From contig JAFCDT010000002.1 of the NCBI GenBank assembly GCA_017609525.1, positions 4,885-68,884 of the forward strand: a stretch of DNA of 64,000 nucleotides, read 5' to 3'. The position numbers and the translations under genes were made by a program. The notes below the pieces were generated by a model, which saw only the letters and a list, made by a program, of their open reading frames with translations, made no database searches and had not been told where the DNA came from. This document shows positions 47,334-64,000 of this stretch, piece by piece (position 1 is the first letter of the stretch; each line of letters begins with the position of its first letter). Source of the stretch: Candidatus Woesearchaeota archaeon (GTDB lineage Archaea; Nanobdellota; Nanobdellia; SCGC-AAA011-G17; JACPNG01).

Positions 47334-47748
47334 ATGTAATAATATTATTACAACTGTTATTTAAATATTGCTATCTTGAGGCATATATGTTTCACTAGTT
47401 ATAACTTTGTTTTTAACTATAAATGTGTAACTTTATGTTTTATAAATTAAATTTACTTAAATATCATGTTTATTTACTTATTTAGAGGATGGTTTTACTT
47501 ATATTATAAGTATTATTACTGATATTCTTTTATTTTATATATTATGTATATTTTATATTAATAGAAATATTTATATAGAAGTTAGTATACTAAATATATT
47601 GGTGAATTTGTGAATTTAACTGGATGAAATAACTACAATAAGAGTTAGTAAAAAAACTAAGTTTCGTTTAATGAAGCATGGTAAAATGATCGAAACAATG
47701 GATGATCTCATAAATAGAGTTCTTGATGCTTTTGAAAGAGAGGAGGAG

Positions 47749-47932
47749 AATGAAAAGTAAAAAGATTATTCTTATTTTAATTATTTTAGTGATTATTTTG
47801 GGTATTGGTTATATGATAATTAGTTTTAATGATTGGGAAAAAGAGGATATGGTTAAAGGAGACATAGTAAAAAATAACCTTGGAGAGGGTGGAGGGTATA
47901 GAATCCAAATCTTAGAAAAGGGGGCTGGTTGA
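47749..47932 (+). CDS. small single-TM protein heading the surface locus
   Basis: MKSKKIILILIILVIILGIGYMII then a Gly-rich tail. 4-nt overlap with the next gene. The start could also be 47723. Confidence 0.3.
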
Positions 47933-50844
47933 TGAAAGGAGGGATAGCAGTAATCATATTTATTGTACTTATTGGGTTAGTTGGTGCTATCGATGATTTG
48001 TTGGCTTTACAAGGAAAGGTTGATCAAAGCGGAACATTGGTTGAATCAGGAGATATTGTAGTAGAGATATGGGATGATGCGACTGCTGGAAATTTAATTT
48101 ATAATTCTACTTCGGATTTTAATGGCGCAATCCAGGGAGGCTTTTTTGATATTGTACTTGGTAGCGGAAGCAATAGCTTAACTTTGAATTTAAGTCAGAC
48201 TTACTATATGGATATAGCTATTGAAGGACAAGACATTGATTGGGGAGGTGATGAAAGGAGGCAGTTTCAGGCTACTGTCGGAAGGCCTTACTTTGAAGAA
48301 GAGGTTGTTTTGAATGATACACTATATACTAAAGATGGAAATGTTGGAATCAACGATGCAAATCCGGGCCATACTTTAAGTGTTGAGGGAAATTTAAGTT
48401 TGGATTCTTCTGTATATGCAAGTTGTACTGCACTGGAGACCGATTCTGCTGGAGGGATAGTCTGTGGAACTGATGATGCTGGAACTTCATCCACCTCATT
48501 TTGGGCAGGAAGTGCTGTAAATGAAATTTATAATGATACTACTGCTGGAGTTGGTATTGGAACTAATAATCCAAGTTATAAATTAGAGGTAAATTCTGTA
48601 GATAGTGCATTAAATGTAAGTGGGATGTTGTATGTTAATTCAAGTAGTGTTGGTATTGGGACTGACGTTCCTGGCAACCCTATATCTATAAGCGGAGTTA
48701 TTGGGATTACAGACAACATTCTTTTTGATAATGGTGTTGATTTCTTTTGGAAAAATTCTTCTGGGACTTCATGGAGCATAATAACATTGCACACAAATAA
48801 CAATCTTTATTTAACATCGCCCGCAGATGCAGATATGATATTTAGAGTTGGTGGATATACTGAAAGAATGAGAATAGACAGTTCAGGAAATGTAGGTATA
48901 GGAACAACAAGTCCAAATAAAACTCTTACAATATTAGGTAATTTGAGTTTGGCTGGTCCTGAGTATATTAGCTGTACTTCTTTGGAGACTGATGCTGAGG
49001 GAGGAATTAGGTGTGGGACTGATGACACTGGCTCTGGGGGAATAACTAATTGGGACAGCAATATTGCTTTCTTGAATGAAAGTCAAACTTTTGCTGAGAA
49101 TAATACCTTTGATGAGAATGTTGTTATTAATACGAGACTAGGAGTTGGAATCGATAACCCCGATGTTACCATGCATGTAAATTCTTCAGCAATTGGGGGA
49201 ATCAAGATCTCGGGAAATTTTCCTCTTTTACAACTACACGACTTCGCTACTGAGAATAAAATGAATATTGAACTTGGAAGAATTGATGCAGGAATGACTA
49301 TATATGATAATGGTTTTGGTGGTGTTGTCTTCTATATTGAAAATACTACAGGAAATGTTGGAATTGGAACTACTACTGTAAATAAAACATTAACAATATT
49401 GGGTAATTTAAGTTTGGCTGGTCCTGAGTATATTAGCTGTACTTCTTTGGAGACTGATGCTGAAGGAGGGATTAGGTGTGGGGCTGATGCTGGAGAGGGA
49501 GGAGGAGTATTTCTTGGATGGGACTCTAATCTGGTGTGGCATAATCAAAGCTTAAATTCAACAATAGCATTGTGGATTGAAAATGATACAACATTAACAG
49601 ACGCGCAAGTAGATGATTTTGCTTTCAATGATAATTCTTCATTGGATACAAGGTATGTAAGCAGGAGCGATTGGACTACAATAGATAACTATCCTTCTGC
49701 TTGTGCTGGAGGACAGTATGTAAGCGGGATAGGGGATACCTTAACTTGTTCAACACCTTCAGGAGGTACAACCTATTGGACAGGAAGTGGAAATTTAATT
49801 TATAATGATACTACTGCTGGAGTTGGAATTGGTACTAATAATCCAAGTTATAAATTAGAAGTAAATGATGCTTCAACAAGCTCTGTTAATCTTTCTGGAG
49901 CTTTATATGTTGATGGAAGCGAAAGGCTTATTGGTATTGGAACTGATAGTCCGTTTAAGGCACTAACGGTTTTGGGAAAGGCGGCTATTGGAGATTCAAT
50001 TAATAGCTCAAGAGCTTCAAGAGCCTTTAATGTTATTGATACTAATGCCGTAGTTAAAATTATGAGGATTAGTGATGATTCTATACTAGCAGCTCCTGCT
50101 TTTGAATTAATACATGAGAACGCTGATGGAGCAAGAGATGTCTATTGGGATTTCTTTGCTAGTGTTGATGGTATAAGTATGAGAGATAGACTGGCGGGAG
50201 AGCAAAGATCTCTCTTTATAGAGGCAGCCACACCAACCAATACCCTTTATTTATCAAGTGGTGGTAATGTAGGTATAAGAACAGCAAGTCCAAATAAAAC
50301 TCTTACAATATTAGGTAATTTGAGTTTGGCTGGTCCTGAGTATATTAGCTGTACTTCTTTGGAGACTGATGCTGAGGGAGGAATTAGGTGTGGAACAGAT
50401 GCTACTGGGACTTCATCCCCTTCATTTTGGGCAGGAAGTGCTGTAAATGAAATTTACAATGATACTACTGTTGGAGTTGGAATTGGTACTAATAATCCAA
50501 GTTATAAATTAGAAGTAAATTCTGTAGATAATGCTATGAATGTAAGTGGGATGTTGTATGTTAATTCAAGTAGTGTTGGTATTGGTGTTATCAACCCAAG
50601 ATATGAATTAGATTTGGATACAGGCACTATAAGGGCACATAGAGTTGTAGGTTCAAGTGGATTAAACTTAACTACAACAGGAAATGTGCCTGTTGTTATT
50701 TATACATCTGACACAGAAAGAATGAGAATTGATTCTTCTGGAAATGTAGGTATAGGAACTAATAATCCAGATTTTAAGTTAGATGTTATAGGAACAATAA
50801 AAGCTAATGATAGCATTAAAATAGGCACATGGTGGAAAGAGTAA
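47929..50844 (+). CDS. giant secreted tail-fibre-like repeat protein (N-terminal part; may be continuous with 50852-52657)
   Basis: Signal-anchor MMKGGIAVIIFIVLIGLVGA. More than 12 copies of the NVGIGTxxPxxxLxVxG fibre repeat. Three copies of LTILGNLSLAGPEYISCTSLETDAEGGIRCG. Long near-identical nucleotide repeats. Confidence 0.65.
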   Translation: MMKGGIAVIIFIVLIGLVGAIDDLLALQGKVDQSGTLVESGDIVVEIWDDATAGNLIYNSTSDFNGAIQGGFFDIVLGSGSNSLTLNLSQTYYMDIAIEGQDIDWGGDERRQFQATVGRPYFEEEVVLNDTLYTKDGNVGINDANPGHTLSVEGNLSLDSSVYASCTALETDSAGGIVCGTDDAGTSSTSFWAGSAVNEIYNDTTAGVGIGTNNPSYKLEVNSVDSALNVSGMLYVNSSSVGIGTDVPGNPISISGVIGITDNILFDNGVDFFWKNSSGTSWSIITLHTNNNLYLTSPADADMIFRVGGYTERMRIDSSGNVGIGTTSPNKTLTILGNLSLAGPEYISCTSLETDAEGGIRCGTDDTGSGGITNWDSNIAFLNESQTFAENNTFDENVVINTRLGVGIDNPDVTMHVNSSAIGGIKISGNFPLLQLHDFATENKMNIELGRIDAGMTIYDNGFGGVVFYIENTTGNVGIGTTTVNKTLTILGNLSLAGPEYISCTSLETDAEGGIRCGADAGEGGGVFLGWDSNLVWHNQSLNSTIALWIENDTTLTDAQVDDFAFNDNSSLDTRYVSRSDWTTIDNYPSACAGGQYVSGIGDTLTCSTPSGGTTYWTGSGNLIYNDTTAGVGIGTNNPSYKLEVNDASTSSVNLSGALYVDGSERLIGIGTDSPFKALTVLGKAAIGDSINSSRASRAFNVIDTNAVVKIMRISDDSILAAPAFELIHENADGARDVYWDFFASVDGISMRDRLAGEQRSLFIEAATPTNTLYLSSGGNVGIRTASPNKTLTILGNLSLAGPEYISCTSLETDAEGGIRCGTDATGTSSPSFWAGSAVNEIYNDTTVGVGIGTNNPSYKLEVNSVDNAMNVSGMLYVNSSSVGIGVINPRYELDLDTGTIRAHRVVGSSGLNLTTTGNVPVVIYTSDTERMRIDSSGNVGIGTNNPDFKLDVIGTIKANDSIKIGTWWKE
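48500..48660. repeat. intragenic repeat B, copy 1 (copy 2 at 50424-50585; partial copies near 49790 and 51000)
   Basis: TTTTGGGCAGGAAGTGCTGTAAATGAAATTTATAATGATACTACTGCTGGAGTTGG...AATTCTGTAGATAGTGCATTAAATGTAAGTGGGATGTTGTATGTTAATTCAAGTAGTGTTGGTATTGG. Confidence 0.75.
48895..49013. repeat. intragenic near-identical repeat A, copy 1 (other copies 49396-49483 and 50272-50392)
   Basis: GGTATAGGAACAACAAGTCCAAATAAAACTCTTACAATATTAGGTAATTTGAGTTTGGCTGGTCCTGAGTATATTAGCTGTACTTCTTTGGAGACTGATGCTGAGGGAGGAATTAGGTGTGG repeated almost exactly at 50272. Confidence 0.8.
50272..50392. repeat. intragenic repeat A, copy 3
   Basis: Identical by eye to 48895-49013 over about 120 nt. Copy 2 (49396-49483) is more diverged. 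Confidence 0.8.
50424..50585. repeat. intragenic repeat B, copy 2
   Basis: About 160 nt nearly identical to 48500-48660. Confidence 0.75.
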
Positions 50845-50851
50845 TACTGGG

Positions 50852-52657
50852 GTGATGATTGGCTCAAACAATGATTTTTCTGGATGGGGAAATCAGATAG
50901 ATGGAATGGATACAGATAATTCTGGTAGTTATTCTAGTTTATATTTAAATTACAGGGGTGGAAAGAAAATCATTTTAACAAATTCGAGTGATGGTAATGT
51001 AGGTATAGGAACAACAAATCCTAGTTATAAATTAGAAGTAAATTCTGTAGATAGTGCATTAAATGTAAGTGGAAATTTGTATGTTAATTCTAGTAATGTT
51101 GGTATAGGGTTTGACAATCCACAACATACCCTTCATATTGAAAACTCATCTGGAGATCTTGTAAGTGCAGTAAAGGTTACTGATGGAAGAAATAGTGTCT
51201 TTTTACAAGCAAGCAGAAGCGTGGGGGATGGGGGGGTTATAGGCACAAGATTGGTCTTGGATGATAATGGGGCGAGCGGTAAAAGATGGGATATTACTAC
51301 AGGAATTAAAGAGGGGGGTTTAGTATTTAGGAATAATGATGATGGAATTAACGCTTTGACATTAAATTCTTCTGGAGATGTAGGTATAGGAACAACAAGT
51401 CCAGATAGAAATTTAGAAGTATCAGGAACGGGAGCACAACAAATTGAAGTAGAATCTACATCAACCGACGCTGATTTAATTATTGATGCCAATACTGATT
51501 CAGATGCAAGAATTATTTTACAAGAAGCAGGAGTAAATTTAGGTTGGATAAGATTAGATGGAGATGATGGTAATAAAATAAAATTTCAGTATAGCACAAG
51601 TGCTACTGATGCAATGACTATCGACCAAACTGGAAAAATAGGTATAGGAACTGCTTTTCCTGGTGCTAAATTACATGTTTCTGAAACAAATAATTCTGCC
51701 TTTGATGCTGCAGTTGCTATTACTAGAACCGCCAGCGGAGGAGACTCTCTTGCATTCCTCAATATAGGTAGTAATTGGTACTTTGGAAGAGATAGTGCGG
51801 GAAACGCTTTTCAGGCTAGATACGCTAATTGGGACTTGACCGAAGACAGGTGGGAATCTACTTATACTGGTAGTATTGTGGGGCCTGTTTTTACCCAATA
51901 TGAGTACAATGGAGACATAAACTTTAAATCAATGGCTCCTCAATCCTTGACAGAAGGGGATGCTTTAAGTTTCGTAAATGTTATGACTTTGAAAGGGGGA
52001 GGAAATGTGGGTATAGTGACAACAAATCCACAGGCAAGATTAGAGGTTGATGATAATAATTATTGGTATAGTACAAAATATCCTGCGGTTGGTATTAAAA
52101 GCATAAGGCCTGCACTTGCTTTTTATGATGATAATTCAGAAGGTAAAAATGTAACAGTCCTTTATCAAGACCAGCAAACTTTCAAGATAGCTAAAACTGC
52201 ATTTACTACTAATGATTGGGGTTATGATGAGAAAATAGATGCATTAAAAATAGATTCAGACGCGAGCATAACATTTCCATATGTTTATTCTGATATTGTT
52301 GGTGGAACGAATAGAGATTTATATATAGACAATACAGGTTTGATAGGTTATGTTAGTTCTAGTATAAGATATAAAGAAAACATAAAAGATATTGGAAATG
52401 GTTCAGAAAAGCTTTATGATTTAAGACCCGTTTCCTTTAATTATAAAGGAGATAATTCCTCTAGCCTTCAATATGGTTTAATTGCTGAAGAAGTTGAAGA
52501 GGTTATGCCTGAGATAGTAAGCTATGATGAAGAAGGTAATCCAGAAACAGTAAGCTACAGTAAGCTAATAAGCCCAATGCTTAATGAGATCCAACAACTT
52601 AAGGAAGAGAATGAAGAATTAAAAAAGAGGATTGAAGTTTTAGAAAAAAAGATTTAG
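50852..52657 (+). CDS. tail-fibre-like repeat protein with a C-terminal intramolecular chaperone (peptidase S74-like) auto-processing domain
   Basis: NVGIGTTNP fibre repeats, then SSSIRYKENIKDIGNGSEKLYDLRPVSFNYKGDNSSSLQYGLIAEEVEEVMPEIVSYDEEGNPETVSYSKLISPMLNEIQQLKEENEELKKRIEVLEKKI. This matches the phage tail-spike/endosialidase C-terminal chaperone domain (Ser in S-x-R-x-K, LIAQEVEEV-like box, terminal coiled coil). No signal peptide of its own. Confidence 0.7.
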   Translation: MMIGSNNDFSGWGNQIDGMDTDNSGSYSSLYLNYRGGKKIILTNSSDGNVGIGTTNPSYKLEVNSVDSALNVSGNLYVNSSNVGIGFDNPQHTLHIENSSGDLVSAVKVTDGRNSVFLQASRSVGDGGVIGTRLVLDDNGASGKRWDITTGIKEGGLVFRNNDDGINALTLNSSGDVGIGTTSPDRNLEVSGTGAQQIEVESTSTDADLIIDANTDSDARIILQEAGVNLGWIRLDGDDGNKIKFQYSTSATDAMTIDQTGKIGIGTAFPGAKLHVSETNNSAFDAAVAITRTASGGDSLAFLNIGSNWYFGRDSAGNAFQARYANWDLTEDRWESTYTGSIVGPVFTQYEYNGDINFKSMAPQSLTEGDALSFVNVMTLKGGGNVGIVTTNPQARLEVDDNNYWYSTKYPAVGIKSIRPALAFYDDNSEGKNVTVLYQDQQTFKIAKTAFTTNDWGYDEKIDALKIDSDASITFPYVYSDIVGGTNRDLYIDNTGLIGYVSSSIRYKENIKDIGNGSEKLYDLRPVSFNYKGDNSSSLQYGLIAEEVEEVMPEIVSYDEEGNPETVSYSKLISPMLNEIQQLKEENEELKKRIEVLEKKI

Positions 52658-52762: not shown

Positions 52763-53248
52763 ATGGATAAATTAAATAAAAAAGAGGGAATTAGTTCTGA
52801 TAAAGACTTTGAAAAATTAAAAAAAATATTAAGCTCCTTAGAAATAAAGTATAAGAAAACTAAAAAAGAAATTCTCAATTTGATTGAAGAAATGGAAACA
52901 ATGCCTGTTTCAATCTTTAATAACACTAAGCTTTCCATACCAGAATCAATTGTTAAGTATTTTGTTGAAGAAAAAAATTACAAATATAGTAAGATTTCTA
53001 AGATCATCAAACGGGACCAAAGGACTGTTTGGGGCTTTTATAACAAAGCTAGGAAGAAATTTCCTAAAAAGTTGAAAATTAATGATTCTAAATTAATTCC
53101 TGTTTCAATTTTTAGTAAAAAAAGCTTGCTAGAAACTATTGCGATTTATCTTAAGAAAAATTTTGATTTAAGTTACCATGATGTTGCTGTTTTACTTAAT
53201 AGAGATGATAGAACGATTTGGACTGTTTGTAATAGGAAGAAAAAATGA
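52763..53248 (+). CDS. tandem helix-turn-helix DNA-binding protein (two sigma-r4/LuxR-like HTH units), candidate locus regulator
   Basis: Internal duplication: IPESIVKYFVEEKNYKYSKISKIIKRDQRTVWGFYNKARKKF and IPVSIFSKKSLLETIAIYLKKNFDLSYHDVAVLLNRDDRTIWTVCNRKKK. 4-nt overlap with the 1070-aa gene. Confidence 0.5.
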   Translation: MDKLNKKEGISSDKDFEKLKKILSSLEIKYKKTKKEILNLIEEMETMPVSIFNNTKLSIPESIVKYFVEEKNYKYSKISKIIKRDQRTVWGFYNKARKKFPKKLKINDSKLIPVSIFSKKSLLETIAIYLKKNFDLSYHDVAVLLNRDDRTIWTVCNRKKK

Positions 53249-56200
53249 ACGAAAGTATCAAGGCAATTATGATTAGTATAATGGTTTTCGTAGTGTTAAG
53301 TGGGCTAATTTATGGTGCCTTTATCTTTACGAGTTATACGGGTTTTGCTGTTAAGGAAATAGTAAGCATTCCTTATGAAGAAGGATTTGAAAATGGAACC
53401 ATAAAGGTAAGTTTAAATGAAACTATTTGGGAGTTTGAAGTTCAAGAACTTGTTAAAGATAAAGATATCATTTTGAATTTAACTAGTCTGGAAACTAATG
53501 AATATGGAGAATTATATATCGACATCATTGTTAATGGAACTGTTGTTGAAAGTAAAAAAGTGATTATTGAAGGAAAGGAAGAAAAACCTTTTGTTACAGA
53601 AGAAGTTAATGAGACAGTTGAAGAAAAATTTTCTGAAGCTAATAATAGTGCTTTTGGAGAAATAAATGTGTCTGTTGAGGAAATTAACAAAACTATTGGG
53701 CTGGTTAATAAGACAGTTGAAGAATCTGATAATGAGATTGTAAATCAAACAGAACCACTAAGAAAGATCAATAAAACCTTAGAAATAAATGAAACGGTTG
53801 AAGAAGTTAATATTACTCTACCAAAAAATATTACTGAAAATTTGAATGAATCTAAGGTAGTAGATAAAGTTTCTATTGTAGAAGAGACAGAAGAAGTAAT
53901 ACAACCTTTAGTTGTGATAAATCAGCCAGTTAGGTGGGTTAAAAAGGTTAGATTAGAGAATTATTCAAATAGTCTTACTGTTGAGGTTCCTAAAGAAGCA
54001 AAGAACATTAGTGTTAAAAAAATTGAAGATGGAAAGGGAAGAGCAATTGAAGAGAAAAAAATCAAGGTTAAAGAAAAAGGAGAAATTAAAGACTTAGAAG
54101 AATTTAATACAATAACTGCGCAGGCGGTCGCTGTTGGTTCTGGCAAACCTTATTTAAGAAACTTTTTCGACTTGATTTCGAAATTTATTAATTCTTTACT
54201 CAAAAAACCCGCAGTAACTGGATTAGTTACTGGTGAAGATAAAGGAACTAAAGAGGTTATTATTGGAGAGTCTGTTAAGGAAGTAGAAATCAAGTATGAA
54301 ATTCCTGGTCCAGGTGTAATAGAATCAGACAAGGCAGATGGTAAGATCATAACAATATTTTCTGAGATTCACTATGAGAATATATTAGCATATACAGAAG
54401 TAGAAGAAACGGATCCAGAGGGTATAAAACTTTACTGGAAACAAAATGGTTCTAGTATTTTGGTTGAAAATGTGGATTACCTAGATGAAAATCAAAATGG
54501 ATTGATAGATAAAATCCAGTGGATTGTTCCACATTTAAGCAATCAGACATATGAGATTGATTTAATTGTTTTAAATGTTCAGAGTTATCCTTATGTTGGG
54601 GGCAATTGGACAGTAAAATTTAACACTACCGGAATAGCAAATTTAACGATAAGTGCATTTAATGGTACTACTTTTGAAGATTATCATAATGATAGCGTGA
54701 TTCATGATTTAGAATTTTTAGAGTTAAGATGTGGCTCTGAATTAATTGCTAATAATCTTACTGCTAATAATAGTTTATTTGTTTCAGATTATAGTTGTAC
54801 AAGTACTAGCTTTGAAACAAGTAAAGTTTTAACACCAGGTGACCACTATATTAAATTTGAGTTTGGACCAATAACTAAATATGCAAAAAACCTTGCTGGT
54901 GAATTTGGAGGGTTGGCTGGAGGAGGAAATGCTAGTGGTACAATGAATTTAATTACCGGTGCCTTTGGTTTTACTGGTTCTAACGAAACAACTGGATCAT
55001 ATACCACTATGCTGCATGGACTACTGAGTGTAGGAAAAAACATAACTTCTGGCGTTTATACATTAGGTTTAGGTTATATTTACATGCTTGATATTGTTCA
55101 GAAGGTTTTTGTTAACCTTGTTAGCCCCGCAGAAGGGGAAACAATTGCTACTGCTACTTTTATTTATATTCCAAACGCTGATGAAATACACAGTTGTAGT
55201 TTGTATGGTAATTGGACCACTGGTTGGCATGCCAATCAAACTGATTATTCTATAGCATTAAGTTCCACTAACCAGTTTACACTAGGTGAATTAGAAGAAG
55301 GCAGGTTTCAGTGGAATGTTATGTGCAACAATAGCCAGGGGGATTTTTTTGCAGAAAACAATTATACTTTTGTACTAAACCGTGTACCAAGTGTGCCAGA
55401 CTTGAATGAACCTTTAAATAACAGCATGTGGAATAGTAGCATTCCTGAACTTAATTGGTCCAACAGCACAGATACAACAGGAGATGATATATTTTATTAT
55501 TTGGAAATTGATGATTCAATAGCTTTTGATAGTGTGGATTATGCAAATAGTACAATAAAAGAAAATGTAAATACAACATCGGATCTTCCTAGCGGACTAG
55601 TTGCAGGAAACTATTGGTGGAGGGTTTTAGCTTATGATGGCAACGCAAACTCTTCATGGTCAGAGGTAAGAAATTTATCAATAAGATTTAATGATGCTCC
55701 TAGTGTTCCTGAATTATTTTTGCCATATAACGATACACAAATAACAGATAGGACTCCTACTTTTAGCTGGAGCAATTCTACTGATCCAGATGGAGATACT
55801 ATCACATATCACATTCAAATAGATGGAGTTATAGACTTTTCAAGTCCTGAGGTGGATGGTTTTGATGTAGGGGGCATTGCTGAAACTGCAAATACAACAA
55901 ACTGGACTGCAACATCTGATTTGCAACAATTAGACACAGAGTACTTTTGGAGGGTTAGAGCGTATGATGGAATTGCTTATAGCAATTGGTCTGAAATAAG
56001 GAATTTTTCGATTGCCAGTACAGTGATTATCACTCTTCCAACAGACAGCATAAACTTTACTGTTGCTAATCCAGGGGATAGTGACGACACTAGTGATGAT
56101 TCCCCTACTCCGATTGTAATAAGAAATAGCGGAAATACTGGTGCTGATGTTAATATCAGTTTGGCCTCTGGGAGCACTGGTCTTTGGGCAAGCAAAGTAA

Positions 56201-56457: not shown

Positions 56458-56926
56458 ATGGTTTGTGATCCTGAATATCGCGTTTGTGATTTTAATAGTT
56501 GGAACAATCTTTTATATCACTCCAAGGGGGCCGGAAGGAAAAATCTACGATCGGCGTCCCTTGTTTAGTTGGACTGGTTATGCAACTAAATTGATAATCG
56601 ATGATAATCCGGATTTTTCCAGTCCGCAAGTCATTGACCTAAAAGGAAGAGATTATCAATTTAAAGAAAATCTTGATTTGGGGGATTATTTCTGGAAATT
56701 AAAGGGGCTTTATGAAACCAAACCCAAGAAATTTAATTTAGAGTCTGAGGTGGCAATAAAACTGTACAAGACTGAATCTTTGAATCTAGAAAACGATGGC
56801 AATACTCGACTGAATGTTACTATTGAAGAACATGATTCTGGGGTGACTGGTCAGATTGTTCTTGATTTGGGGGAAATTGCTGTTGTGAAAGAAAATTCGG
56901 ACATTAAAGCAAAGCAAGATGAATAA
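56444..56926 (+). CDS. single-domain membrane-anchored paralog carrying one copy of the FSW...YFWK repeat
   Basis: TM FVILNIAFVILIVGTIFYI, then RPLFSWTGYATKLIIDDNPDFSSPQVIDL...LGDYFWKLKG. Confidence 0.5.
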   Translation: MKSHKWFVILNIAFVILIVGTIFYITPRGPEGKIYDRRPLFSWTGYATKLIIDDNPDFSSPQVIDLKGRDYQFKENLDLGDYFWKLKGLYETKPKKFNLESEVAIKLYKTESLNLENDGNTRLNVTIEEHDSGVTGQIVLDLGEIAVVKENSDIKAKQDE

Positions 56927-58118
56927 GAAATTATGGTTGGGAATTGTAGCAATTTTGATAGTTTCAAGTATCAATGTTTTTGCAATAGGAATTAGTCCAG
57001 GTAAAACAATTTTAGATTTTTCGCCAAACACCCAACAAGACATTGTATTCAGGGTGCTAAATAATGAAAAAAAAGAGATGGATGTTTTGTTATATGTGGG
57101 AGAAAGTGAATTAAGTGATATTGTTACCCTCTATGATTCTATTATTAGCTTTAAATCTGAAGAAGAAAGTAAAGAATTCAGATACACTGTGAATTTTCCT
57201 GACAAAATTGACACTCCCGGAGATCATGAAATACAAATTATTGCTTTAGAGATTCCCAAAGGTACAAAAGGAAATAATTTTGTTGGTGCTACTGCTGCTG
57301 TTGCAACCATCCTAAAAGTCAGGGTCCCATATCCTGGAAAATATGCGAAAATTGAATTAGCGGTTTCTGATGCTAAAGTCGGAGAAGAAATGACTTTTGT
57401 TGTTCCTGTCTGGAATCTGGGAACAGATGATATTATTAATGCCCAAGCAAGTATTGATATCTTGGGGCCTACTAATGAAAAAATTGCTACGCTTAGTACA
57501 GAAAAAAAAGGGATTAAATCCAAAAGCAAGAGCGAATTAGTTGCAAAATGGGAAGCAGATACAAATGCCGGCAAGTATTTTGCTGTGGCTACTTTAACAT
57601 ATGATGGAAAAACTGCAAGGGCTGAAAAAATTTTTGCCTTAGGTGATCTGTTTATTGATATTATTGATATTAATGTTAAAAACTTTAATTTGGGTGAAGT
57701 AGCTAAATTTAATATTTTAGTTGAAAATAAATGGAATGATTTAATCACAAATATTGTTCCAGAAATTAAGATTAGTGATAAGAATGGCAATGAAGTTGCT
57801 GTATTTAAAGGAGCAGGAGCGGATGTAGATGCTTTAAGTAAAGCAGAATTAAATGCATATTGGGATACTGAAGGAGTTAAAGAAGGAGTTTATGATGGTA
57901 AAGCAATTTTGCATTATTCTGGAAAGACTACAGAAAAACAACTTAAAACAGATATTAGTTTAAATGGAATTAAGGTTTCATTTTTGGGACAGACCGCTCA
58001 AGTTGTTAGGGGAGGAGCAGGTGTTGGAAGGAACTCTGTATTAGTGATTTTAGTTATGATCTTAATTATTATAAATGTGGGTTGGTTTATATATATCAAA
58101 AGGATGAAAAGAGGATAG
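56919..58118 (+). CDS. CARDB-like surface protein with signal peptide and C-terminal TM plus KRMKRG tail (paralog of 59008-60129)
   Basis: Signal WLGIVAILIVSSINVFA. Repeated Ig-like units starting PYPGKYAKIELAVSDAKVGEEMTFVVPVWNLG. C-terminal VLVILVMILIIINVGWFIYIKRMKRG. Confidence 0.55.
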   Translation: MNKKLWLGIVAILIVSSINVFAIGISPGKTILDFSPNTQQDIVFRVLNNEKKEMDVLLYVGESELSDIVTLYDSIISFKSEEESKEFRYTVNFPDKIDTPGDHEIQIIALEIPKGTKGNNFVGATAAVATILKVRVPYPGKYAKIELAVSDAKVGEEMTFVVPVWNLGTDDIINAQASIDILGPTNEKIATLSTEKKGIKSKSKSELVAKWEADTNAGKYFAVATLTYDGKTARAEKIFALGDLFIDIIDINVKNFNLGEVAKFNILVENKWNDLITNIVPEIKISDKNGNEVAVFKGAGADVDALSKAELNAYWDTEGVKEGVYDGKAILHYSGKTTEKQLKTDISLNGIKVSFLGQTAQVVRGGAGVGRNSVLVILVMILIIINVGWFIYIKRMKRG

Positions 58119-58156: not shown

Positions 58157-58369
58157 ATGGTCAAAAAAAGGGGCAAAAAAAAGGTTTCTAAAAATTTGTT
58201 AGCCATACTTTTAGTTATTGCAATTTTGTTATCTGTTGTAGGGACCTATATGGCTATTTACAATGCCAATGTTGTAAGGGTAATTGAGATTGAGCCCGCT
58301 TCCTTGGGAAAGGTCGGGGTTTATGTTAACAATCCAGAACTCCCCGCAGGAGATGAAGGTGGCGGATAA
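58157..58369 (+). CDS. small N-terminally anchored protein (pilin-like candidate)
   Basis: MVKKRGKKKVSKNLLAILLVIAILLSVVGTYMAI: basic N-terminus plus one hydrophobic helix, 70 aa. The six-frame ORF 58082-58369 extends it upstream of the likely start. Confidence 0.35.
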   Translation: MVKKRGKKKVSKNLLAILLVIAILLSVVGTYMAIYNANVVRVIEIEPASLGKVGVYVNNPELPAGDEGGG

Positions 58370-58979
58370 AAAAGAAGTTTCCAATGGGGTCTTAGTAGCT
58401 TTAGCTGGAATTGCCATAATTGTTTCTTTAGTAGGCATACTTACAATGATTGGTAAGCCAATGCCAATTCTTGGTGCTGTTGTGGGTACTGTAAATGTTA
58501 CCATAAATGAAAGTGTTGGTATAAGTTTGGTTACTGAAAGTATTAACTTTACAACTTCAGGTATAAACGATGTGAAAGACACGACGACTGCGACAGATGT
58601 TCAGGGTTGTAGTGCTGCTCCTTGTGGATTCAATATCACAAACGATGGGAGCATCAATATCAACATTAGTATAGATGTAACCTCGGATATGTTTGTAAGC
58701 TCTAGTACAAATGCTAGTTCATTTATGTGTAATGCTACTAACTTTGATTCAAATAGTAATGCCTCTGCACAAGGGTGGACAGGAGATTGCACATACGCAG
58801 AATGGGTAGACTGCAGAGATGGTCAGGCAGTTGAAACTGGCAATTGTTTTGCTGATATTAATTTTACAGATGGTGCTGATACTGTTTACTTAGAGGTACA
58901 AATCGCGGTTCCAGATGCAGAACCTTCTGGGGATAAGCAGGCATCAATTACATTTACTGGAACTAGTGCTGGAACTTAA
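58353..58979 (+). CDS. N-terminally anchored secreted protein with sequons, a Cys pattern and the C-terminal EPSGDK...TG motif (pilin-like or adhesin subunit candidate)
   Basis: Start at ATG 58353 (MKVADKKEVSNGVLVALAGIAIIVSLVG). Ectodomain with 6 Cys and multiple N-x-T/S. C-terminus IAVPDAEPSGDKQASITFTGTSAGT is shared with the 1070-aa protein. Confidence 0.5.
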   Translation: MKVADKKEVSNGVLVALAGIAIIVSLVGILTMIGKPMPILGAVVGTVNVTINESVGISLVTESINFTTSGINDVKDTTTATDVQGCSAAPCGFNITNDGSININISIDVTSDMFVSSSTNASSFMCNATNFDSNSNASAQGWTGDCTYAEWVDCRDGQAVETGNCFADINFTDGADTVYLEVQIAVPDAEPSGDKQASITFTGTSAGT

Positions 58980-59007: not shown

Positions 59008-60129
59008 TTGTTTAAAGTTCTTATGAAAAGGGGTTTTTTATTTGTGTTATTCTTTTTGTTTTTGGCTAATTCTGTTTTTGCTATTCTAATCACTCCTGCT
59101 AGTTTGGAGATGGAATTTGCTCCGAACAAAGAGTATGATTGTAGTTTTATTGTTAGAGTAAATAAACAAACCGACTTACTGGTATATGCCCGTGGAGAGC
59201 TAAATCAAAGTGTGAGTTTTTCTAAGAATAAACTAAAAGCTGTTCCTGGTGAATGGAATAGTGTGGGGTGCAAAATAAAAATGCCTCAGGATATGAAACC
59301 AGGGTTAAACAAAAATTTTGTTGGAGTTGTAGAAGATACTAGTGGCAAGGGGGTTGTTGGAGGTGTGACTGGCGTGGAGGTCACATTATTTATAAGAAAA
59401 CCTTACCCTGGGAAATACTTAGAATTAGAGAAATTTGAAGCCAATAATGCAGAAATAAATGAAAAAGTTAATTTTTTAATTGAGGTTATTAATAGGGGAA
59501 AAGAAAAAATAAACAATGCCTTTGCATTGATAGAAGTGTATGATAAAGATAAAAAAATTGATCAGGTTGAATCAAATCATATTGAGATTGTTAGTAATGG
59601 TGTTTTTAAAGCAGAATGGAAAACAAGTGTGGCGGGAAGATATAAAGCTTTGGCAAGAATAAATTATGATGGCTCTATTTTAGAAGAAAAAAAGAATTTT
59701 AATGTAGGAGAGCGTTTAGCTAAGATTCTAAATATTTCTGATGCAAAGGTAAAAAAAGGAGACATTGCTAAATTTGATATCAATATTCAAAGTTATTGGA
59801 ATGAAATAATAAAAGATGTCTACTTAGAGTTAAAGGTGGTTGGGCAAGAGGTGAATTCTAGGACAGAGTCCATATCCTTGGGTCCTTGGGACAGTAGGAC
59901 CATTACTGGTTTCTTGGAGACTTCTTCGCTAGAAGAAGGGGAATATGAAGTTGATGTTACTTTAAATTATGATGATAAATATTCAGAAGCTAAAACGAGT
60001 TTGGTGGTAACAAAGGGGTTTAGTCTCTCTGTGACTACAATTGTTCTAATCGTAATTATAGCTATCCTTATCTTGCTGGTTATTATTAATATTGTTATGT
60101 TTAAGAAAAAATGGAAAAAAAGAAAGTAA
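59008..60129 (+). CDS. CARDB-like surface protein, paralog of 56919-58118, with C-terminal TM plus KKKWKKRK
   Basis: Signal FLFVLFFLFLANSVFA. PYPGKYLELEKFEANNAEINEKVNFLIEVINRG unit. C-terminal TIVLIVIIAILILLVIINIVMFKKKWKKRK. Confidence 0.55.
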   Translation: MFKVLMKRGFLFVLFFLFLANSVFAILITPASLEMEFAPNKEYDCSFIVRVNKQTDLLVYARGELNQSVSFSKNKLKAVPGEWNSVGCKIKMPQDMKPGLNKNFVGVVEDTSGKGVVGGVTGVEVTLFIRKPYPGKYLELEKFEANNAEINEKVNFLIEVINRGKEKINNAFALIEVYDKDKKIDQVESNHIEIVSNGVFKAEWKTSVAGRYKALARINYDGSILEEKKNFNVGERLAKILNISDAKVKKGDIAKFDINIQSYWNEIIKDVYLELKVVGQEVNSRTESISLGPWDSRTITGFLETSSLEEGEYEVDVTLNYDDKYSEAKTSLVVTKGFSLSVTTIVLIVIIAILILLVIINIVMFKKKWKKRK

Positions 60130-60524
60130 TCTTCTTATTTAGTGGAATTGCTATTGTCATCTTTTTCCTATTTATCTTTTTTTATAATTTCTTTTTTGTT
60201 CTGGGCGTGAAAAACATTGATTTTTCTATTAAAGTAGGAGATACAATTGGATTAAATGTTGATACTGACAAATTGTATTTTGGTACTGTTCCAAGAGGGG
60301 GAACAGCTGATAGGGGCATCCTAGTAAAAAACGAAGAACATTCCTTGGTTAAAACTAATATAAAAGTGCAGAGCGATATTAAAGACTGGCTGTATGTTAA
60401 TAACAATAATTTCTTTTTAAAAAAAGATGAGAAAAAAGATATTAATTTTAAGGTTAAGGTGCCTTTGGATGCTGAATATGGGGAATATGATGGACAGATA
60501 ATCCTTATTTTTACCCGGTTCTAG
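60111..60524 (+). CDS. small signal-anchored beta-rich protein
   Basis: TM VIFLFSGIAIVIFFLFIFFYNFFFVL then a 100-aa domain. 19-nt overlap with the preceding gene. Confidence 0.45.
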   Translation: MEKKKVIFLFSGIAIVIFFLFIFFYNFFFVLGVKNIDFSIKVGDTIGLNVDTDKLYFGTVPRGGTADRGILVKNEEHSLVKTNIKVQSDIKDWLYVNNNNFFLKKDEKKDINFKVKVPLDAEYGEYDGQIILIFTRF

Positions 60525-60563
60525 AAATCTATATAAATAACCATACTCTAATTTTATCTAACA

Positions 60564-62321
60564 ATGAAAGAGGTTCCAGATAAGTTACTGTTATTTTTAT
60601 ACATAACTTTTATTTTCACATTTCTAATTGGTTTGATATTAATTGTTACTAATGCTCCTCTATTTTTAAGTATAATCACTGGAAAAGTTGCAAGTACTGG
60701 TTTGGTTGGTTTATGTGTGGGTGTTACTCCTGCCATAAGCAGCATAGGGTATCAGGAAGGTTTTGTTGATACAGAATTTTATTATGATGTTGAAGCTTCT
60801 GCCGGAGATGATCCTATAAGTTTTAGTGATGATAGTGATTTGTTTGTTATTGATGCAGACAGCGGGGAAATCAATTTTACTCCAAGTTCTACAGATAAAG
60901 GCAACTATTCGATAACTATCACAGTAACCAACACTATTTGTGCTGACGGGGGTCCAACTGCTGAGGAAGTGTTTACACTTGAAATTAAGTCTGAACCACC
61001 TGTTTTGGATCCCATAGGAAATCAGACACTTACAGAAGATGTGGCTTATTACTATGATGTCAATGCTTCTGATCCTGACCCCGGAGATAATGCAAGCTTA
61101 GTATTTTTAGATGACACTGGTTTGTTTGATATTAATGAAAGCACTGGAATTATTAGTTTTACTCCTGTAAATGATGATGTGGGGGTTCATGAAGTTAGAA
61201 TAACTGTTACTGATCCTAGCGGAGCTTCTGATTTCGAAGACCTTAATTTTACTGTGGAGAATGTAAATGATGCTCCTGTATTAGATGAGATCCCTAATTT
61301 TACTGTTGCTGATGCAATAAGTGAAGATGTTGAATTCTACTATGATGTAAATGCAACTGACATAGATGTTGGTGATATTTTGAGGTATACTGATAATACT
61401 CCGCTATTTGTGATTGGTGAAACTTTTGGAATAATACAGTGGACACCAAGCAATGCGCAAATTGGTAATTATTCAATAACGATTTATGTTGATGATGGTG
61501 AAGCATTAGACTCTCAGGTGTTTAATGTTGAAGTGCTGGCAGTTGATGATCGTCCAATCTTAGAACCAATTGGTGCCCAGACTGCTGATGTAAATGTTAG
61601 TTTCTTTTTGGATGTTGAAGCTTCTGATGAAGAAGATGGGGATGAGTCAACTGGAAATCTTACATTTAGTGACAATACTACTTTGTTTAATATTAGTTCT
61701 AGCAATGGACAAATAAACTTTACTCCTACAGATAGTGATATTGGCACATATAATATAAATATAAGTGTTAATGATTCTACTGGCCAGGTTAGTTCTGAAG
61801 TGATATCTTTTACTGTGGCAGTAATTAATGATGCTCCAACTATTGATTCTTATGTTCCAACTGATTTAACTCCTTCAGTAGATGAAGGTGATACTTTATT
61901 CTTCAATATAACAATGTCTGATCCTGATGGGTCTGATCCTGATGGAACAACCCCGAGTGTCCAGTGGTATTTAGATGCGGCCGCTATAAGTGGAGAAACC
62001 AACATGCATTATAATTATAATCCTAATTTTGACTCACAAGGGACACATAATATGACTGTAATCATTACAGATGGATCTTTATATGACTCTGTGGAATGGA
62101 TAGTAACTGTAAATAATGTGGTACAGGTTGATAAAGGTCCTTCTGGTGGAGGGGGTGGTGGAGGAAGCAAGGGTTGTAGTGAAAGGTGGAATTGTAGTGA
62201 TTGGAGTCCTTGTCAGTATCCTGGAATACAAATCAGAACATGCAGTGATATGAAAAATTGTGGTACAACCCGATTTAAGCCTGGCGAGAGAAAACGGTGT
62301 GAATTTTTGATGGAATATTAA
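60564..62321 (+). CDS. cadherin-like repeat surface protein (N-terminal 585 aa; frame-broken from its CGG-x-C/TM C-terminus)
   Basis: Signal-anchor, at least five cadherin-like units with YYYDVxAxD...NDAP(V/T)(L/I) boundaries, a Gly7 linker, and a Cys-rich CSERWNCSDWSPCQYPGIQIRTCSDMKNCG knot. Stops 2 codons after a T5 run. Confidence 0.6.
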   Translation: MKEVPDKLLLFLYITFIFTFLIGLILIVTNAPLFLSIITGKVASTGLVGLCVGVTPAISSIGYQEGFVDTEFYYDVEASAGDDPISFSDDSDLFVIDADSGEINFTPSSTDKGNYSITITVTNTICADGGPTAEEVFTLEIKSEPPVLDPIGNQTLTEDVAYYYDVNASDPDPGDNASLVFLDDTGLFDINESTGIISFTPVNDDVGVHEVRITVTDPSGASDFEDLNFTVENVNDAPVLDEIPNFTVADAISEDVEFYYDVNATDIDVGDILRYTDNTPLFVIGETFGIIQWTPSNAQIGNYSITIYVDDGEALDSQVFNVEVLAVDDRPILEPIGAQTADVNVSFFLDVEASDEEDGDESTGNLTFSDNTTLFNISSSNGQINFTPTDSDIGTYNINISVNDSTGQVSSEVISFTVAVINDAPTIDSYVPTDLTPSVDEGDTLFFNITMSDPDGSDPDGTTPSVQWYLDAAAISGETNMHYNYNPNFDSQGTHNMTVIITDGSLYDSVEWIVTVNNVVQVDKGPSGGGGGGGSKGCSERWNCSDWSPCQYPGIQIRTCSDMKNCGTTRFKPGERKRCEFLMEY

Positions 62322-62335
62322 ACCAAGATGAAATT

Positions 62336-62833
62336 TTGGTAGATTGTGGTGGAGTTTGTAAAGCTTGTCCTACTTGTGATGATGGAATTAAAAATCAAGG
62401 AGAGGTGGAGATAGATTGCGGTGGACCATGTCCTGGTTGTCCTAAAACAGAAAAACCCTCTAGATTGGTTACAATTTTATGTGGAAATGGTCAAATAGAC
62501 AGAGTTGGTGAGATATTTACATGCTTCAAGGATAGTTGGTATATCTGGTTAATTGTCTTGGTTGTCATTTTATTACTCTTATTAAGAAAAAGAATAAAGA
62601 AAGCTAAGAAATCTTTAGAATTTACAAACCTAGATAGAGAGAGGATTGGTAGGATAAAAAGATTGATTAAGGTTGCTGATCTGGCCTTGAGAGAAAAGCA
62701 AATCAGTAAACTAAAAGTTACTTGCGATAGAATTGAGATTCTATACAATGGTTTACAAAGTGAGAGAAGCAAGAGAAAAGTCTATAGAAAGATTAAGAAA
62801 CTTAATAATAGGATAAATAATTTTAAATCTTAG
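62336..62833 (+). CDS. C-terminal module: tandem DCGG-x-C cysteine knot, TM and a coiled-coil cytoplasmic tail. Very likely the continuation of 60564-62321 after a single-nucleotide frame error
   Basis: The reading frame is open from 62303 (IFDGILNQDEILVDCGGVCKACPTCDDGIKNQGEVEIDCGGPCPGCPK...) with no start codon until the TTG at 62336. A +1 shift in TTTTT (62304-62308) fuses it to the upstream ORF. TM IWLIVLVVILLLLL plus a basic tail. Confidence 0.5.
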   Translation: MVDCGGVCKACPTCDDGIKNQGEVEIDCGGPCPGCPKTEKPSRLVTILCGNGQIDRVGEIFTCFKDSWYIWLIVLVVILLLLLRKRIKKAKKSLEFTNLDRERIGRIKRLIKVADLALREKQISKLKVTCDRIEILYNGLQSERSKRKVYRKIKKLNNRINNFKS

Positions 62834-62906
62834 AAATCTTTATAAGTTAGTTATACTACATTTTTCTCAGTTATTTTATTTGTTATACTACAAAAAGAGG
62901 GATTTG

Positions 62907-63380
62907 ATGGTTCATAAGAGGTATATTAAAAAAGGGGGCAAAGTGTATGGTCCTTATTTCTATAAAACAGTAAGAGATAAGGACGGAAGCGTTAAAAATA
63001 TATATCTTGGAAGCGTTGAAAAAGAAAAAAAAAGTGTAGTACAACCAAAATATCTCTATGTTTTTTTAAGTTTATTCTTAATGGTTTTAGTTTTAGCTGG
63101 TTTTTATTTTAGTGAATATACAGGAAATGTTGTAAGGTTAGGAGAAATCTCTTTACCTGATTTTAAAAGCCAAAATTTAAGCAGGGGTGATTTTTTTTCT
63201 GCTAAAGTTGTTTCTGATTTGAGAGCGGCTTATTTTACAGATGATAGTGATCTCTTTAACATTAGTTCAGATGGATTTATTGAGTTTAGAGCGGAAGAAA
63301 GAGGAGAATATCCTGTGGCCATAATTGCCAAATCTGAAGAAGGATTTGAGTATCAGATTGTTAAATTTTTAATAAAATGA
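62907..63380 (+). CDS. small signal-anchored protein with a cadherin-like N-terminal unit
   Basis: Likely start MVHKRYIKKGGKVYGPYFY at 62907. TM YLYVFLSLFLMVLVLAGFYF. YFTDDSDLFNISSDGFIEF resembles the start of the neighbouring cadherin-like units. Confidence 0.4.
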   Translation: MVHKRYIKKGGKVYGPYFYKTVRDKDGSVKNIYLGSVEKEKKSVVQPKYLYVFLSLFLMVLVLAGFYFSEYTGNVVRLGEISLPDFKSQNLSRGDFFSAKVVSDLRAAYFTDDSDLFNISSDGFIEFRAEERGEYPVAIIAKSEEGFEYQIVKFLIK

Positions 63381-64000
63381 AAAAAACGTGGTTTATACTC
63401 ATTTTTGTATTTTTAATAAGTATTGTAATTGCTACTAATCCTGTTTTTGATGAAGGTTTGCCTCCAGATGGAGTTACTTTGACTGAAGATGTTGCTGTTT
63501 ATTATGATATTAATGCAAGCGATGCAGAAGATGGTGATGAAAGTTCTGGGAATCTCACTTATAGCGATGATACTGATTTGTTTGATATTAATGAAACAAC
63601 CGGGATTATTAGTTTTACTCCTGACAATAACAGTGTGGGGGTTTATAACTCAACATACAATAATTCTGTGGCTATAATTGTGAAAGATTCCACTGAAGAG
63701 GCCACTATAGACATCTGGACATTTGAGATTGTGGCTGTTAATGATGCACCGAACATAACCACTGTTAGTTTAGCTGATGCTACAGAAGATAGTGCTTATA
63801 CTGCCACTATTGAGGCGACTGATGAAGAAGGAAATACTCCTCTTGGGTTTGAAGCAAATGAAACTTTTGTGAATATGACAAATCTAACAGCTACTAGCGG
63901 GATAATAGCTTTCACGCCCAATAACACCCAGGTTGGAACATGGAATATTAATATTACTGTAACCGATAGTAATGGGAGCGACTCTAAGAGTGGGAGCAAG
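63377..64000 (+). CDS. cadherin-like repeat surface protein (5' part; continues beyond window)
   Basis: ATG 63377 overlaps the previous stop. Signal MKKTWFILIFVFLISIVIA. Units VYYDINASDAEDGDESSGNLTYSDDTDLFDINETTGIISFTP...VAVNDAPNITTV... The frame is open to the window end. Confidence 0.55.
   Translation, partial: MKKTWFILIFVFLISIVIATNPVFDEGLPPDGVTLTEDVAVYYDINASDAEDGDESSGNLTYSDDTDLFDINETTGIISFTPDNNSVGVYNSTYNNSVAIIVKDSTEEATIDIWTFEIVAVNDAPNITTVSLADATEDSAYTATIEATDEEGNTPLGFEANETFVNMTNLTATSGIIAFTPNNTQVGTWNINITVTDSNGSDSKSGSK

Follow-up and report, generated by a model that had tools for sequence, protein, structure and literature searches.

The nearest architectural analogue of the gene cassette described here is the WxL cluster (WxL/Csc) of Firmicutes, in which a small WxL protein is encoded together with WxLIP and with a large protein that ends in a WxL domain (PMC9772566, PMC10599100). 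WxLIP, built of DUF916, DUF3324 and a transmembrane (TM) helix, is predicted to insert a strand into WxL (PMC10599100). The TasA superfamily (AbpA, TasA fibres, cannulae, Sulfolobus threads and TLP-1) has Sec-exported, heavily glycosylated beta-sandwich subunits of ~200 aa with a conserved N-terminal strand, and needs neither an ATPase nor an usher. In chaperone-usher pili (FimA/FimH/FimC), the subunits are incomplete immunoglobulin (Ig) folds, and the tip adhesin joins a binding domain to a C-terminal pilin domain; tip adhesins such as FimH have a pilin domain without a free donor strand. In Bdellovibrio, cell-encoded MAT fibres, which occur in S74 and non-S74 forms, mediate prey recognition (PMC10769870). 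Here we report on a locus of surface proteins at positions 47750-64000 of a 64,000-nucleotide stretch of DNA (hereafter, the window) from a Candidatus Woesearchaeota archaeon (assembly GCA_017609525.1, contig JAFCDT010000002.1). An earlier reading of this stretch from its letters alone (hereafter, the original prediction) had taken the last 16 kb for a dedicated surface apparatus. We found that the locus contains a conserved cassette, which most likely builds a glycosylated adhesive fibre or surface complex of pilin-like subunits held by membrane-anchored helpers.

The conserved core was delimited to 52763-62833, from g3 to g10/g11 (Table 1), by comparison with related loci, which are labelled L001-L087; L003 and L004 are the closest relatives and L005-L007 are distant. 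The cassette was present in three contigs encoding close g7 homologues (L001, L003 and L004) and in the three distant contigs, which come from Aenigmatarchaeota and other DPANN metagenome-assembled genomes (MAGs). When 83 non-redundant related loci were scanned with family hidden Markov models, with denominators that vary per feature, the gene order was found to be kept across Nanoarchaeia and Woese-, Pace- and Aenigmatarchaeota. A scan of one genome per species found g6 in 121 genomes, almost all of which carry one of these four labels; a few related loci bear non-DPANN MAG labels (Methanosarcinales, Bacteriovoracaceae). A large protein with a g7-type domain lies just upstream of the first gene for an Ig-domain protein with a TM helix (Ig/TM gene) in 38 of 41 loci, and g5 is directly adjacent upstream of the g6-type gene in 39 of 54. 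A second Ig/TM paralog is found no more than 6 kb away (43 of 58 loci). Between the two Ig/TM genes lie a small g7-like gene (42 of 43 loci, with one or two g7 copies per locus) and g6b (33 of 43), and g9 follows right after the second one in 36 of 43. A g10/g11-like protein comes after the cassette in at least 27 of 42 loci. Thus, the orthologues are not scattered in related genomes but co-inherited, which supports the earlier view of a dedicated surface apparatus over a chance run of genes. The unit, however, is smaller than the 16 kb first proposed; the fibre genes at 47932-52657 are missing from L003 and L004.

Judged by homology between its parts, the core is made of two protein modules, one pilin-like and one Ig-like, each reused several times. 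No core family has a curated annotation, the core genes gave no useful NCBIfam match, and a description of the cassette is absent from the searchable literature. The pilin-like module appears in its simplest form in g7, whose family numbers 1,673 representatives at 50% clustering. The g7 domain also forms the C-terminal ~150 aa of g4 (hhalign 99.7%, E 5e-26; BLASTP E 3e-8). Two further genes carry fragments of this module: g5 matches residues 832-938 of g4 (BLASTP E 2e-4) as well as the g4 C-terminus (hhalign 89%, E 2e-6), and g6b matches residues 3-52 of g7 (hhalign 97.3%, E 2e-11). An ORF (open reading frame) of 231 aa at 58284-58979 resolves into g6b and the overlapping g7, with which the annotation of related contigs concurs; the ATG at 58353 is more likely to be the g7 start than 58284.

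The Ig-like module is represented by g6, its paralog g8 (26% identity, E 3e-28; hhalign probability 100%) and g9, which aligns with residues 23-110 of g6 (hhalign 96.8%, E 2e-10). The most conserved gene of the cassette is g6, with 45-58% identity across lineages over 356 matches, and its TM helix is highly conserved, with a near-invariant IN-x-GWF-x-Y motif. In the g6 model, the third Ig domain is followed by a short disordered linker and then the TM helix. A conserved VGAT-x-AV strand of g6/g8 comes behind a disordered loop (117-123). WxLIP_HBD was the commonest Pfam match in the g6 family (17 of 40 members), the best of these just attaining the 28.9-bit cut-off; g8 matches the same model with E 2.5e-4, and g9 gave weak matches to PapD-like, ASH and WxLIP_PGBD. 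The start of g8 at TTG 59008 is uncertain, with an alternative ATG at 59023. As to the original prediction of two CARDB-like paralogs with C-terminal TM helices and basic tails, the paralogy, helices and tails were confirmed, but the CARDB and DUF11 matches of g6 and g8 are weak and sub-threshold, and the label is therefore loose. The same applies to its two small "pilin-like" N-anchored proteins: small N-anchored proteins do exist, but three of them derive from the two reused modules.

Table 1. Genes of the locus, with positions in the window.
Gene	Coordinates	Strand	Length (aa)	Features
g0	47750..47932	+	60	N-terminal TM helix, short ectodomain; accessory
g1	47929..50844	+	971	N-anchored repetitive fibre protein, tail-fibre/MAT-like, no S74; accessory, variable
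g2	50852..52657	+	601	Fibre protein, C-terminal S74 intramolecular chaperone; no signal or TM helix
g3	52763..53248	+	161	Tandem helix-turn-helix (HTH) protein, putative operon regulator; 4-nt overlap with g4 start
g4	53245..56457	+	1070	N-anchored, heavily glycosylated as predicted from N-x-S/T sequons; two FN3-like domains (~714-923), C-terminal pilin-like domain (~920-1063)
g5	56444..56926	+	160	N-anchored; FN3-like unit and first strands of pilin-like domain
g6	56919..58118	+	399	Signal peptide, three Ig-like beta-sandwich domains, C-terminal TM helix, basic tail; WxLIP-like
g6b	58157..58369	+	70	Mini-protein homologous solely to g7 N-terminus (n-region, TM helix, G-x-V-x-V strand)
g7	58353..58979	+	208	Small pilin-like protein; n-region and TM helix, ITG, G-x-VNVTI strand, Cys-containing beta-sandwich
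g8	59008..60129	+	373	g6 paralog; signal peptide, three Ig-like domains, C-terminal TM helix, basic tail
g9	60111..60524	+	137	N-anchored single Ig-like domain, homologous to domain 1 of g6/g8
g10+g11	60564..62833	+		One cadherin-like type I membrane protein, frameshifted into two ORFs
g12	62907..63380	+	~157	Cytoplasmic N-terminal motif, TM helix, YTGNVV motif, one cadherin-like unit
g13	63377..64000	+		N-anchored He_PIG/Big_9 repeat protein, cut by window end

Searches of the PDB, by single sequence and by profile, returned nothing for g7, g6 or g4, and the g7 family had no match in Pfam or NCBIfam either. A word-indexed profile search with the g7 family found 33 proteins, and the 10 representatives looked up are each a "hypothetical protein" of Nano- or Woesearchaeota. 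In the AlphaFold model of g7 (pLDDT, the model's per-residue confidence, 84.5), a beta-sandwich comes after the TM helix and an unplaced segment (residues 34-56), which is a low-confidence coil (pLDDT 63-65) in the monomer model. This segment holds the I-T-G and G-x-VNVTI motifs, which are among the most conserved positions of the family, and the G-x-VNVTI strand is a candidate donor strand. In the TLP-1 study, the N-terminal segment predicted as disordered in the AlphaFold2 homologue A0A2M8AA21, the modelling reference, is the donor strand in the fibril (PMC11494351). A Foldseek search with the g7 model placed TLP-1a/b fibrils at the top (probability 0.98), followed by ~40 chaperone-usher pilin chains and the Natrinema Tafi pilus. 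The best matches of the predicted fold are thus subunits of donor-strand-exchange filaments, namely archaeal bundling pilin (ABP), TLP-1 and chaperone-usher pilins.

The fold of g7 is an all-beta sandwich with no pilin alpha1-helix packed on the sheet. This bears on the idea of a type IV pilus-related locus (archaeal adhesion pilus), in which the small N-anchored proteins would be class III signal-peptide pilins. Their charged N-terminus followed by a hydrophobic helix would suit such pilins, and DPANN loci with unrecognisable pilins have been proposed earlier (PMC6393860), but the conserved ITG motif lies after the hydrophobic helix and not before it, and no PilB/FlaI ATPase, TadC/FlaJ platform or prepilin peptidase is encoded among the 15 genes or in the flanks of the related loci. 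Together with the fold, this makes the type IV pilus reading very improbable.

The motif [I/Y/L]-T-G-[F/L/N]-[A/V]-[V/I] was noticed shortly 3' of the N-terminal hydrophobic helix in g4 (53335-53355), g7 (58467-58475), g10 (60672-60692) and g12 (63111-63131). It also occurs in many secreted ORFs of L001-L087. Of 58 N-terminal occurrences, 26 stand directly after a hydrophobic 15-mer, and the motif is probably a processing or sorting site. Instead of this motif, g6 and g8 carry an ordinary V-F-A type site.

The protein g4, whose own Pfam matches are to Ig_Rha78A_N/fn3, has an N-terminal part that is variable among relatives. Among g4-like proteins, the length varies between ~400 and >3,300 aa and the N-terminal domains are unrelated to one another (Laminin_G_3, DUF2341, beta-helix), whereas the C-terminal domain is constant. 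Since the last FN3 strand of g4 occupies the position equivalent to the G-x-VNVTI segment of g7, its pilin-like domain would have no free donor strand, a feature by which it may resemble a tip adhesin of the FimH type. We propose that g4 is a tip adhesin or a displayed cargo.

The variability of g4 argues against a two-component S-layer of the SlaA/SlaB type, with g4 as the outer canopy and g6/g8 as the membrane stalks. Such a layer would account for a large, heavily glycosylated secreted protein encoded in one operon beside a ~400-aa beta-sandwich protein with a C-terminal TM helix, and earlier comparative genomics called nearby Ig-domain membrane proteins "S-layer-like" (PMC5898192, PMC6393860). 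However, only the C-terminal domain is kept among the g4-like proteins, the identity of g6 across very distant lineages is unlike that of lattice proteins, and the g6 model has no coiled-coil stalk before the TM helix. In addition, g6b, g7, g9 and the duplicated pairing would be left unexplained. We consider an S-layer improbable.

The 15 co-directional ORFs lie on the plus strand with intergenic gaps of -19 to +105 nt in the ORF listing, in line with the single strand and short gaps or overlaps noted before. In a hydropathy scan, an N-terminal hydrophobic helix was found in g0, g1, g4, g5, g6, g6b, g7, g8, g9, g10, g12 and g13, and a C-terminal TM helix followed by a basic tail in g6, g8 and g11; signal and TM calls throughout were made with a Kyte-Doolittle script and not with SignalP. 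The statement that every gene except 52763-53248 encodes a secreted or anchored protein is correct for most of the genes, but there are two exceptions, as g2 also has no signal or TM segment. N-x-S/T sequons are enriched 2-3.5-fold over shuffles in g1 (30 vs 15 expected), g4 (54 vs 15), g7, g10 and g13 (13 vs 4.4), and are absent or at expectation in g2, g5, g6, g6b, g8 and g9. The figure for g4 agrees with its earlier description as a 1070-aa glycoprotein, and the beta-sandwich of g7 is predicted to be glycosylated. Family-wide, sequon density is 4.3-5.1 per 100 aa in the pilin-like domain as compared with 0.25 in g6. This partition between genes fits a division into exposed structural parts and assembly or base parts.

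Taken together, these data lead us to favour, tentatively and at a little short of an even chance, the reading that the core is a DPANN operon building a glycosylated fibre or stalk by beta-strand complementation between incomplete Ig-like domains. Transcription would be controlled by g3. The products of g4, g7 and g6b would be inserted by Sec through their unusually conserved N-terminal anchors, with probable cleavage at the shared I/Y-T-G motif. We propose g7 as the major subunit, which would repeat along the structure, its N-terminal G-x-VNVTI strand filling the groove of the neighbouring subunit. The same domain closes g4, where it follows a lineage-variable adhesin part and FN3 spacers; this would place g4 distally, in the manner of FimH in type 1 pili. 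The proteins g6 (beside g4/g5) and g8 (beside g6b/g7/g9) would act as membrane-tethered chaperones or anchors of the pilin-like domains, a role that has been proposed for WxLIP towards WxL domains. The conservation of both the IN-x-GWF-x-Y helix of g6/g8 and the N-terminal helix of g7/g6b suggests intramembrane contacts. The truncated derivatives g6b (strand only), g5 (FN3 and half a domain) and g9 (one Ig) would start, cap or anchor the structure; for g6b we propose a strand-only anchor, an initiator or a terminator. Further adhesins may be contributed by g10/g11 and by the upstream MAT-like g1/g2.

Several points weigh against a fibre. Polymerisation is predicted from the fold resemblance only, and sequence searches gave no connection to TasA/Peptidase_M73, WxL or any PDB chain. 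In g7, the N-terminal hydrophobic stretch spans ~22 residues and is conserved in its own right; it may stay in the membrane as a permanent anchor instead of being cleaved off as a signal, which would favour a static complex. Polymerisation is not known for the WxL cluster. The locus encodes no dedicated signal peptidase, usher or ATPase, and Pfam and NCBIfam scans of the 15 locus proteins returned no peptidase family other than the S74 auto-chaperone of g2. Finally, g5, g6b and g9 are absent from a minority of loci.

An alternative is a static, non-polymerising display complex of the WxL/Csc kind, in which g6 and g8 would bind the pilin-like domain of g4/g7 one-to-one, possibly by strand insertion, and keep a variable adhesin, along with a small partner, at the cell surface without any fibre. 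The architecture agrees with that of a WxL cluster point for point (PMC9772566, PMC10599100): a domain-only small protein, a large protein in which that domain comes last, after the variable binding domains, and a signal-Ig-Ig-TM protein ending in a basic tail. Matches to WxLIP_HBD and WxLIP_PGBD, though weak, fall at equivalent positions in the archaeal cassette, and the conserved long TM helix of g7, together with the conserved helix of g6, suggests a membrane-embedded complex. However, the cassette has no WxL motifs, PF13731 match or LPXTG protein; neither of the two Trp of g7 lies within a conserved W-x-L motif, and none of 49 family members matched a WxL model at E<=0.01. The WxLIP scores are at or below the Pfam cut-off. 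The Ig/TM protein of the cassette occurs as two paralogs, each with three domains where WxLIP has two, and the truncated g5, g6b and g9 are extra. WxL domains are held to bind peptidoglycan, whereas the host of the cassette is an archaeon without it; archaea lack murein. The fold of g7 is closest to polymerising subunits, and the strand-only g6b, the one or two g7 copies per locus and the heavy g7 glycosylation are more typical of filament systems. We hold a static complex to be possible but less probable than the fibre; the polymerising and static versions share the strand-complementation core.

The cassette can also be compared with the TasA superfamily. It includes the best structural matches of g7 and shares with the cassette the form of the subunit and its route of export, as well as the freedom from ATPase and usher; accessory beta-sandwich proteins (AbpB/TapA) are co-encoded in ABP and TasA operons too. 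On the other hand, g7 gave no Peptidase_M73/TasA match in Pfam and no sequence match to TasA or AbpA in the PDB, even by profile at E<=10. The cassette also has no SipW, which occurs in bacterial TasA only. Its subunit domain is found, in addition, at the C-terminus of a large adhesin, and ABP/TasA loci have no counterpart of the membrane-anchored Ig proteins or of the strand-only mini-gene. For the cassette, filament formation is a prediction. Chaperone-usher pili resemble it in their incomplete Ig-fold subunit and in the layout of the tip adhesin, but the cassette has no outer membrane, usher or sequence homology to go with them, and its helpers are membrane-anchored and three-domain, unlike the soluble periplasmic PapD-like chaperone. 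By these comparisons, the cassette would be a variant of the strand-complementation surface assemblies, and it falls outside every named family.

A putative archaeal secretion system (arCOG01314 / cls.004306, NEQ255; Makarova et al.) likewise combines secreted and Ig-domain membrane proteins conserved in DPANN. Its "secreted protein" family cls.004306/NEQ255 is DPANN-specific and lies near predicted S-layer-like/secretion-system genes (PMC6393860, PMC5898192), and unannotated extracellular DPANN families were described by Castelle et al. (PMC8204110). An overlap of the cassette families with cls.004306 and with those of Castelle et al. is possible. The Aenigmatarchaeota cassettes L005 and L006 adjoin BatA/vWA, DUF58 and MoxR-type AAA+ genes, which follow on the opposite strand (L005 16603-18731, L006 19903-21194) and are components of this putative system, whereas the window locus has no arCOG01314-like, vWA or MoxR gene.

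Upstream of the core lie the fibre genes g1 and g2, which are related through shared repeats (E 4e-23) and both match many tail-fibre PHROGs. The protein g1 matches PHROG tail fibre 9942/18345 (E 8e-30), and g2 ends in a Peptidase_S74 domain (residues 503-556, E 3.5e-15, 56 bits against a Pfam cut-off of 22), where the sequence SSIRYK preserves the S-x4-K spacing of the S74 Ser...Lys dyad. Fibre proteins with an auto-chaperone, as foreseen by the original prediction, are therefore present. Residues 247-312 of g2 match the Bdellovibrio fibre Bd2133 (PDB 8ond_A, E 1.4e-10), residues 166-281 match PDB 8ojn_C (E 4.8e-5), and g2 is 24-29% identical to cyanophage and pelagiphage tail fibres. Lacking any signal or TM segment, g2 may continue g1 across a frameshift, or it may be a partner subunit; on this point the tblastn alignments to the L005, L014 and L017 fibres are ambiguous owing to repeats. 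Because g1 and g2 are absent from L003 and L004, they are accessory to the cassette; similar fibres are found beside the cassettes of L005, L006, L014 and L017. The region 48001-52000 has a GC content of 0.365-0.377, as compared with 0.328 for the window average, which is compatible with horizontal acquisition.

The tail-fibre matches, the S74 chaperone and the slightly higher GC of g1/g2, together with weak "virion structural" and Hoc-like matches of g4 and g10, are what an integrated virus or virus-derived island would offer, with the tail-fibre, HTH and Ig-repeat genes as provirus remnants. We regard this as scarcely credible. The locus lacks capsid, terminase, portal and integrase genes, PHROG searches with the core genes g5-g9 gave no match (among clear hits, such matches are confined to the fibre genes), and the cassette is syntenic in the 121 species-level genomes and stands among primase, ribosomal-protein, MCM and tRNA-synthetase genes. 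Moreover, cell-encoded tail-fibre-like adhesins are established in Bdellovibrio (PMC10769870). The provirus, the type IV pilus locus and the S-layer operon were all rejected.

The pair g1/g2 resembles the MAT fibres in consisting of one non-S74 and one S74 member, in the match of g2 to the Bd2133 fibre region and its terminal S74 domain, and in being cell-encoded in an organism that must recognise other cells. It differs in that its host is an archaeon, that g1 is anchored via an N-terminal TM helix and g2 has no export signal, and that the pair is not kept with the cassette in the closest relatives. The comparison covered the fibre repeats and the S74 domain; MAT fibres further trimerise, self-cleave and carry a conserved ~130-aa beta-rich domain right behind the signal peptide. 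Prey recognition by MAT offers a good functional analogy for an episymbiont, and the presence of such fibres beside the cassette suggests convergence with Bdellovibrio on phage-type fibres for cell-cell recognition. Since the adhesin N-terminal parts vary and the fibres resemble those used in prey recognition by Bdellovibrio, a role of the cassette in host contact is plausible by analogy.

DPANN host attachment is largely unknown, as most lineages are uncultured and Woese-, Pace- and Aenigmatarchaeota are known almost solely from MAGs. The cassette is a concrete candidate for how DPANN cells grip their hosts, and it turns "hypothetical membrane proteins" into a defined set across more than 100 species-level genomes, with a testable assembly mechanism. 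If strand complementation is true, chaperone-free or chaperone-assisted donor-strand-exchange filaments would extend to DPANN, and a mechanistic model would be at hand for the enigmatic WxL clusters of enterococci, listeriae and lactobacilli. The boldest version, which we hold to be rather unlikely, is that of an unrecognised archaeal organelle: a Sec-dependent donor-strand-exchange pilus with membrane-anchored Ig chaperones and a lineage-variable tip adhesin, serving as the principal host-attachment device of Nanoarchaeota-related and Aenigmatarchaeota DPANN, with possible shared ancestry with WxL/WxLIP. Were that ancestry true, WxL/WxLIP complexes would be reinterpreted as strand-complementation assemblies.

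The protein at the head of the core, g3, is an internal duplication of one HTH unit, its halves being 33% identical (E 2e-10), so that the tandem-HTH assignment of 52763-53248 was well founded. Its Pfam HTH matches (Sigma70_r4_2, HTH_23 and DUF134) are weak and all below threshold. A g3-like HTH gene stands at the head of the cassette in 11 loci.

At the other end of the core, the two ORFs g10 and g11 represent one gene, because the alignment of a 768-aa orthologue from L001 runs through both, with residues 1-583 matching frame 1 and residues 592-762 matching frame 3. The break between them is a frameshift within a T5 homopolymer (62304-62308), which could be an assembly error, a pseudogene mutation or a slippage site; the L003 orthologue is likewise split, at another position. 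The combined protein has, in order, an N-terminal anchor, ~4-5 He_PIG/Big_9/PKD repeats (He_PIG E 2.8e-24 in g10), Cys-rich modules, a TM helix and a basic helical cytoplasmic tail. At least three cadherin-like repeat proteins with DCGG-x-C knots had been expected, but a motif scan of the window located just two copies of DCGG-x-C, both within g11, which leaves one such protein. The last gene, g13, matches He_PIG with E 1.8e-7. In L001, L008 and L009, the equivalent of g12 is fused with a g13-like repeat protein of 1431-1450 aa. The N-terminus of g12 (62907-63011) reads MVHKRYIKKGGKxYGPYxYKSxRxxDGKVKNIYLG, is cytoplasmic, precedes the TM anchor and has no Pfam match. This motif also heads many very large surface proteins (L001 16339-, L008 15946-, L009 15938-, L036 16431-, L028 2062-), and its role may be to mark some exported proteins for targeting or regulation.

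Upstream of g1, g0 has a GGAGG-like site before it, its stop overlaps the g1 start, and its Pfam matches are all sub-threshold. A 46-aa ORF at 47620-47760 (+), in the AT-rich divergent intergenic region 5' of g0/g1, matches Pfam DUF7557 above the cut-off (E 4e-7). It has no in-frame ATG, GTG or TTG, the codons after the upstream stop being CTG (47620), GAT, GAA and ATA (47629), and the ORF could represent either a decayed gene or a small regulator that starts at an unusual codon.

The window is an archaeal chromosome segment with 33% GC, and upstream of the locus lie housekeeping genes, including those for RFC, Ile/Val- and Met-tRNA synthetases, MCM, topoisomerase VI, a ribosomal-protein block and a fused PriS-PriL primase. 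The earlier guess of a DPANN-type source is reasonable, because the closest named relatives of the locus proteins are in MAGs labelled Candidatus Nanoarchaeia. A wHTH-nucleotidyltransferase (MNT) gene and a small partner gene (46379-47333, minus strand) adjoin the cassette, and such a pair is also found beside it in two distant genomes (L006 5623-6700, with a HEPN-like partner, and L007 16697-17798); Makarova et al. described an unusually conserved DPANN MNT-HEPN family in a "house-keeping context". Next to these genes and outside the conserved cassette, 42930-46291 (-) encodes two more membrane proteins without a Pfam match, the first a single-pass protein of 777 aa with an extremely long K/E-rich coiled-coil cytoplasmic part, and the second a bitopic protein of 330 aa. 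Farther upstream, a free-standing 360-aa ORF with a LAGLIDADG_3 domain is located at 15665-16747 (-), directly downstream of the topoisomerase VI genes.

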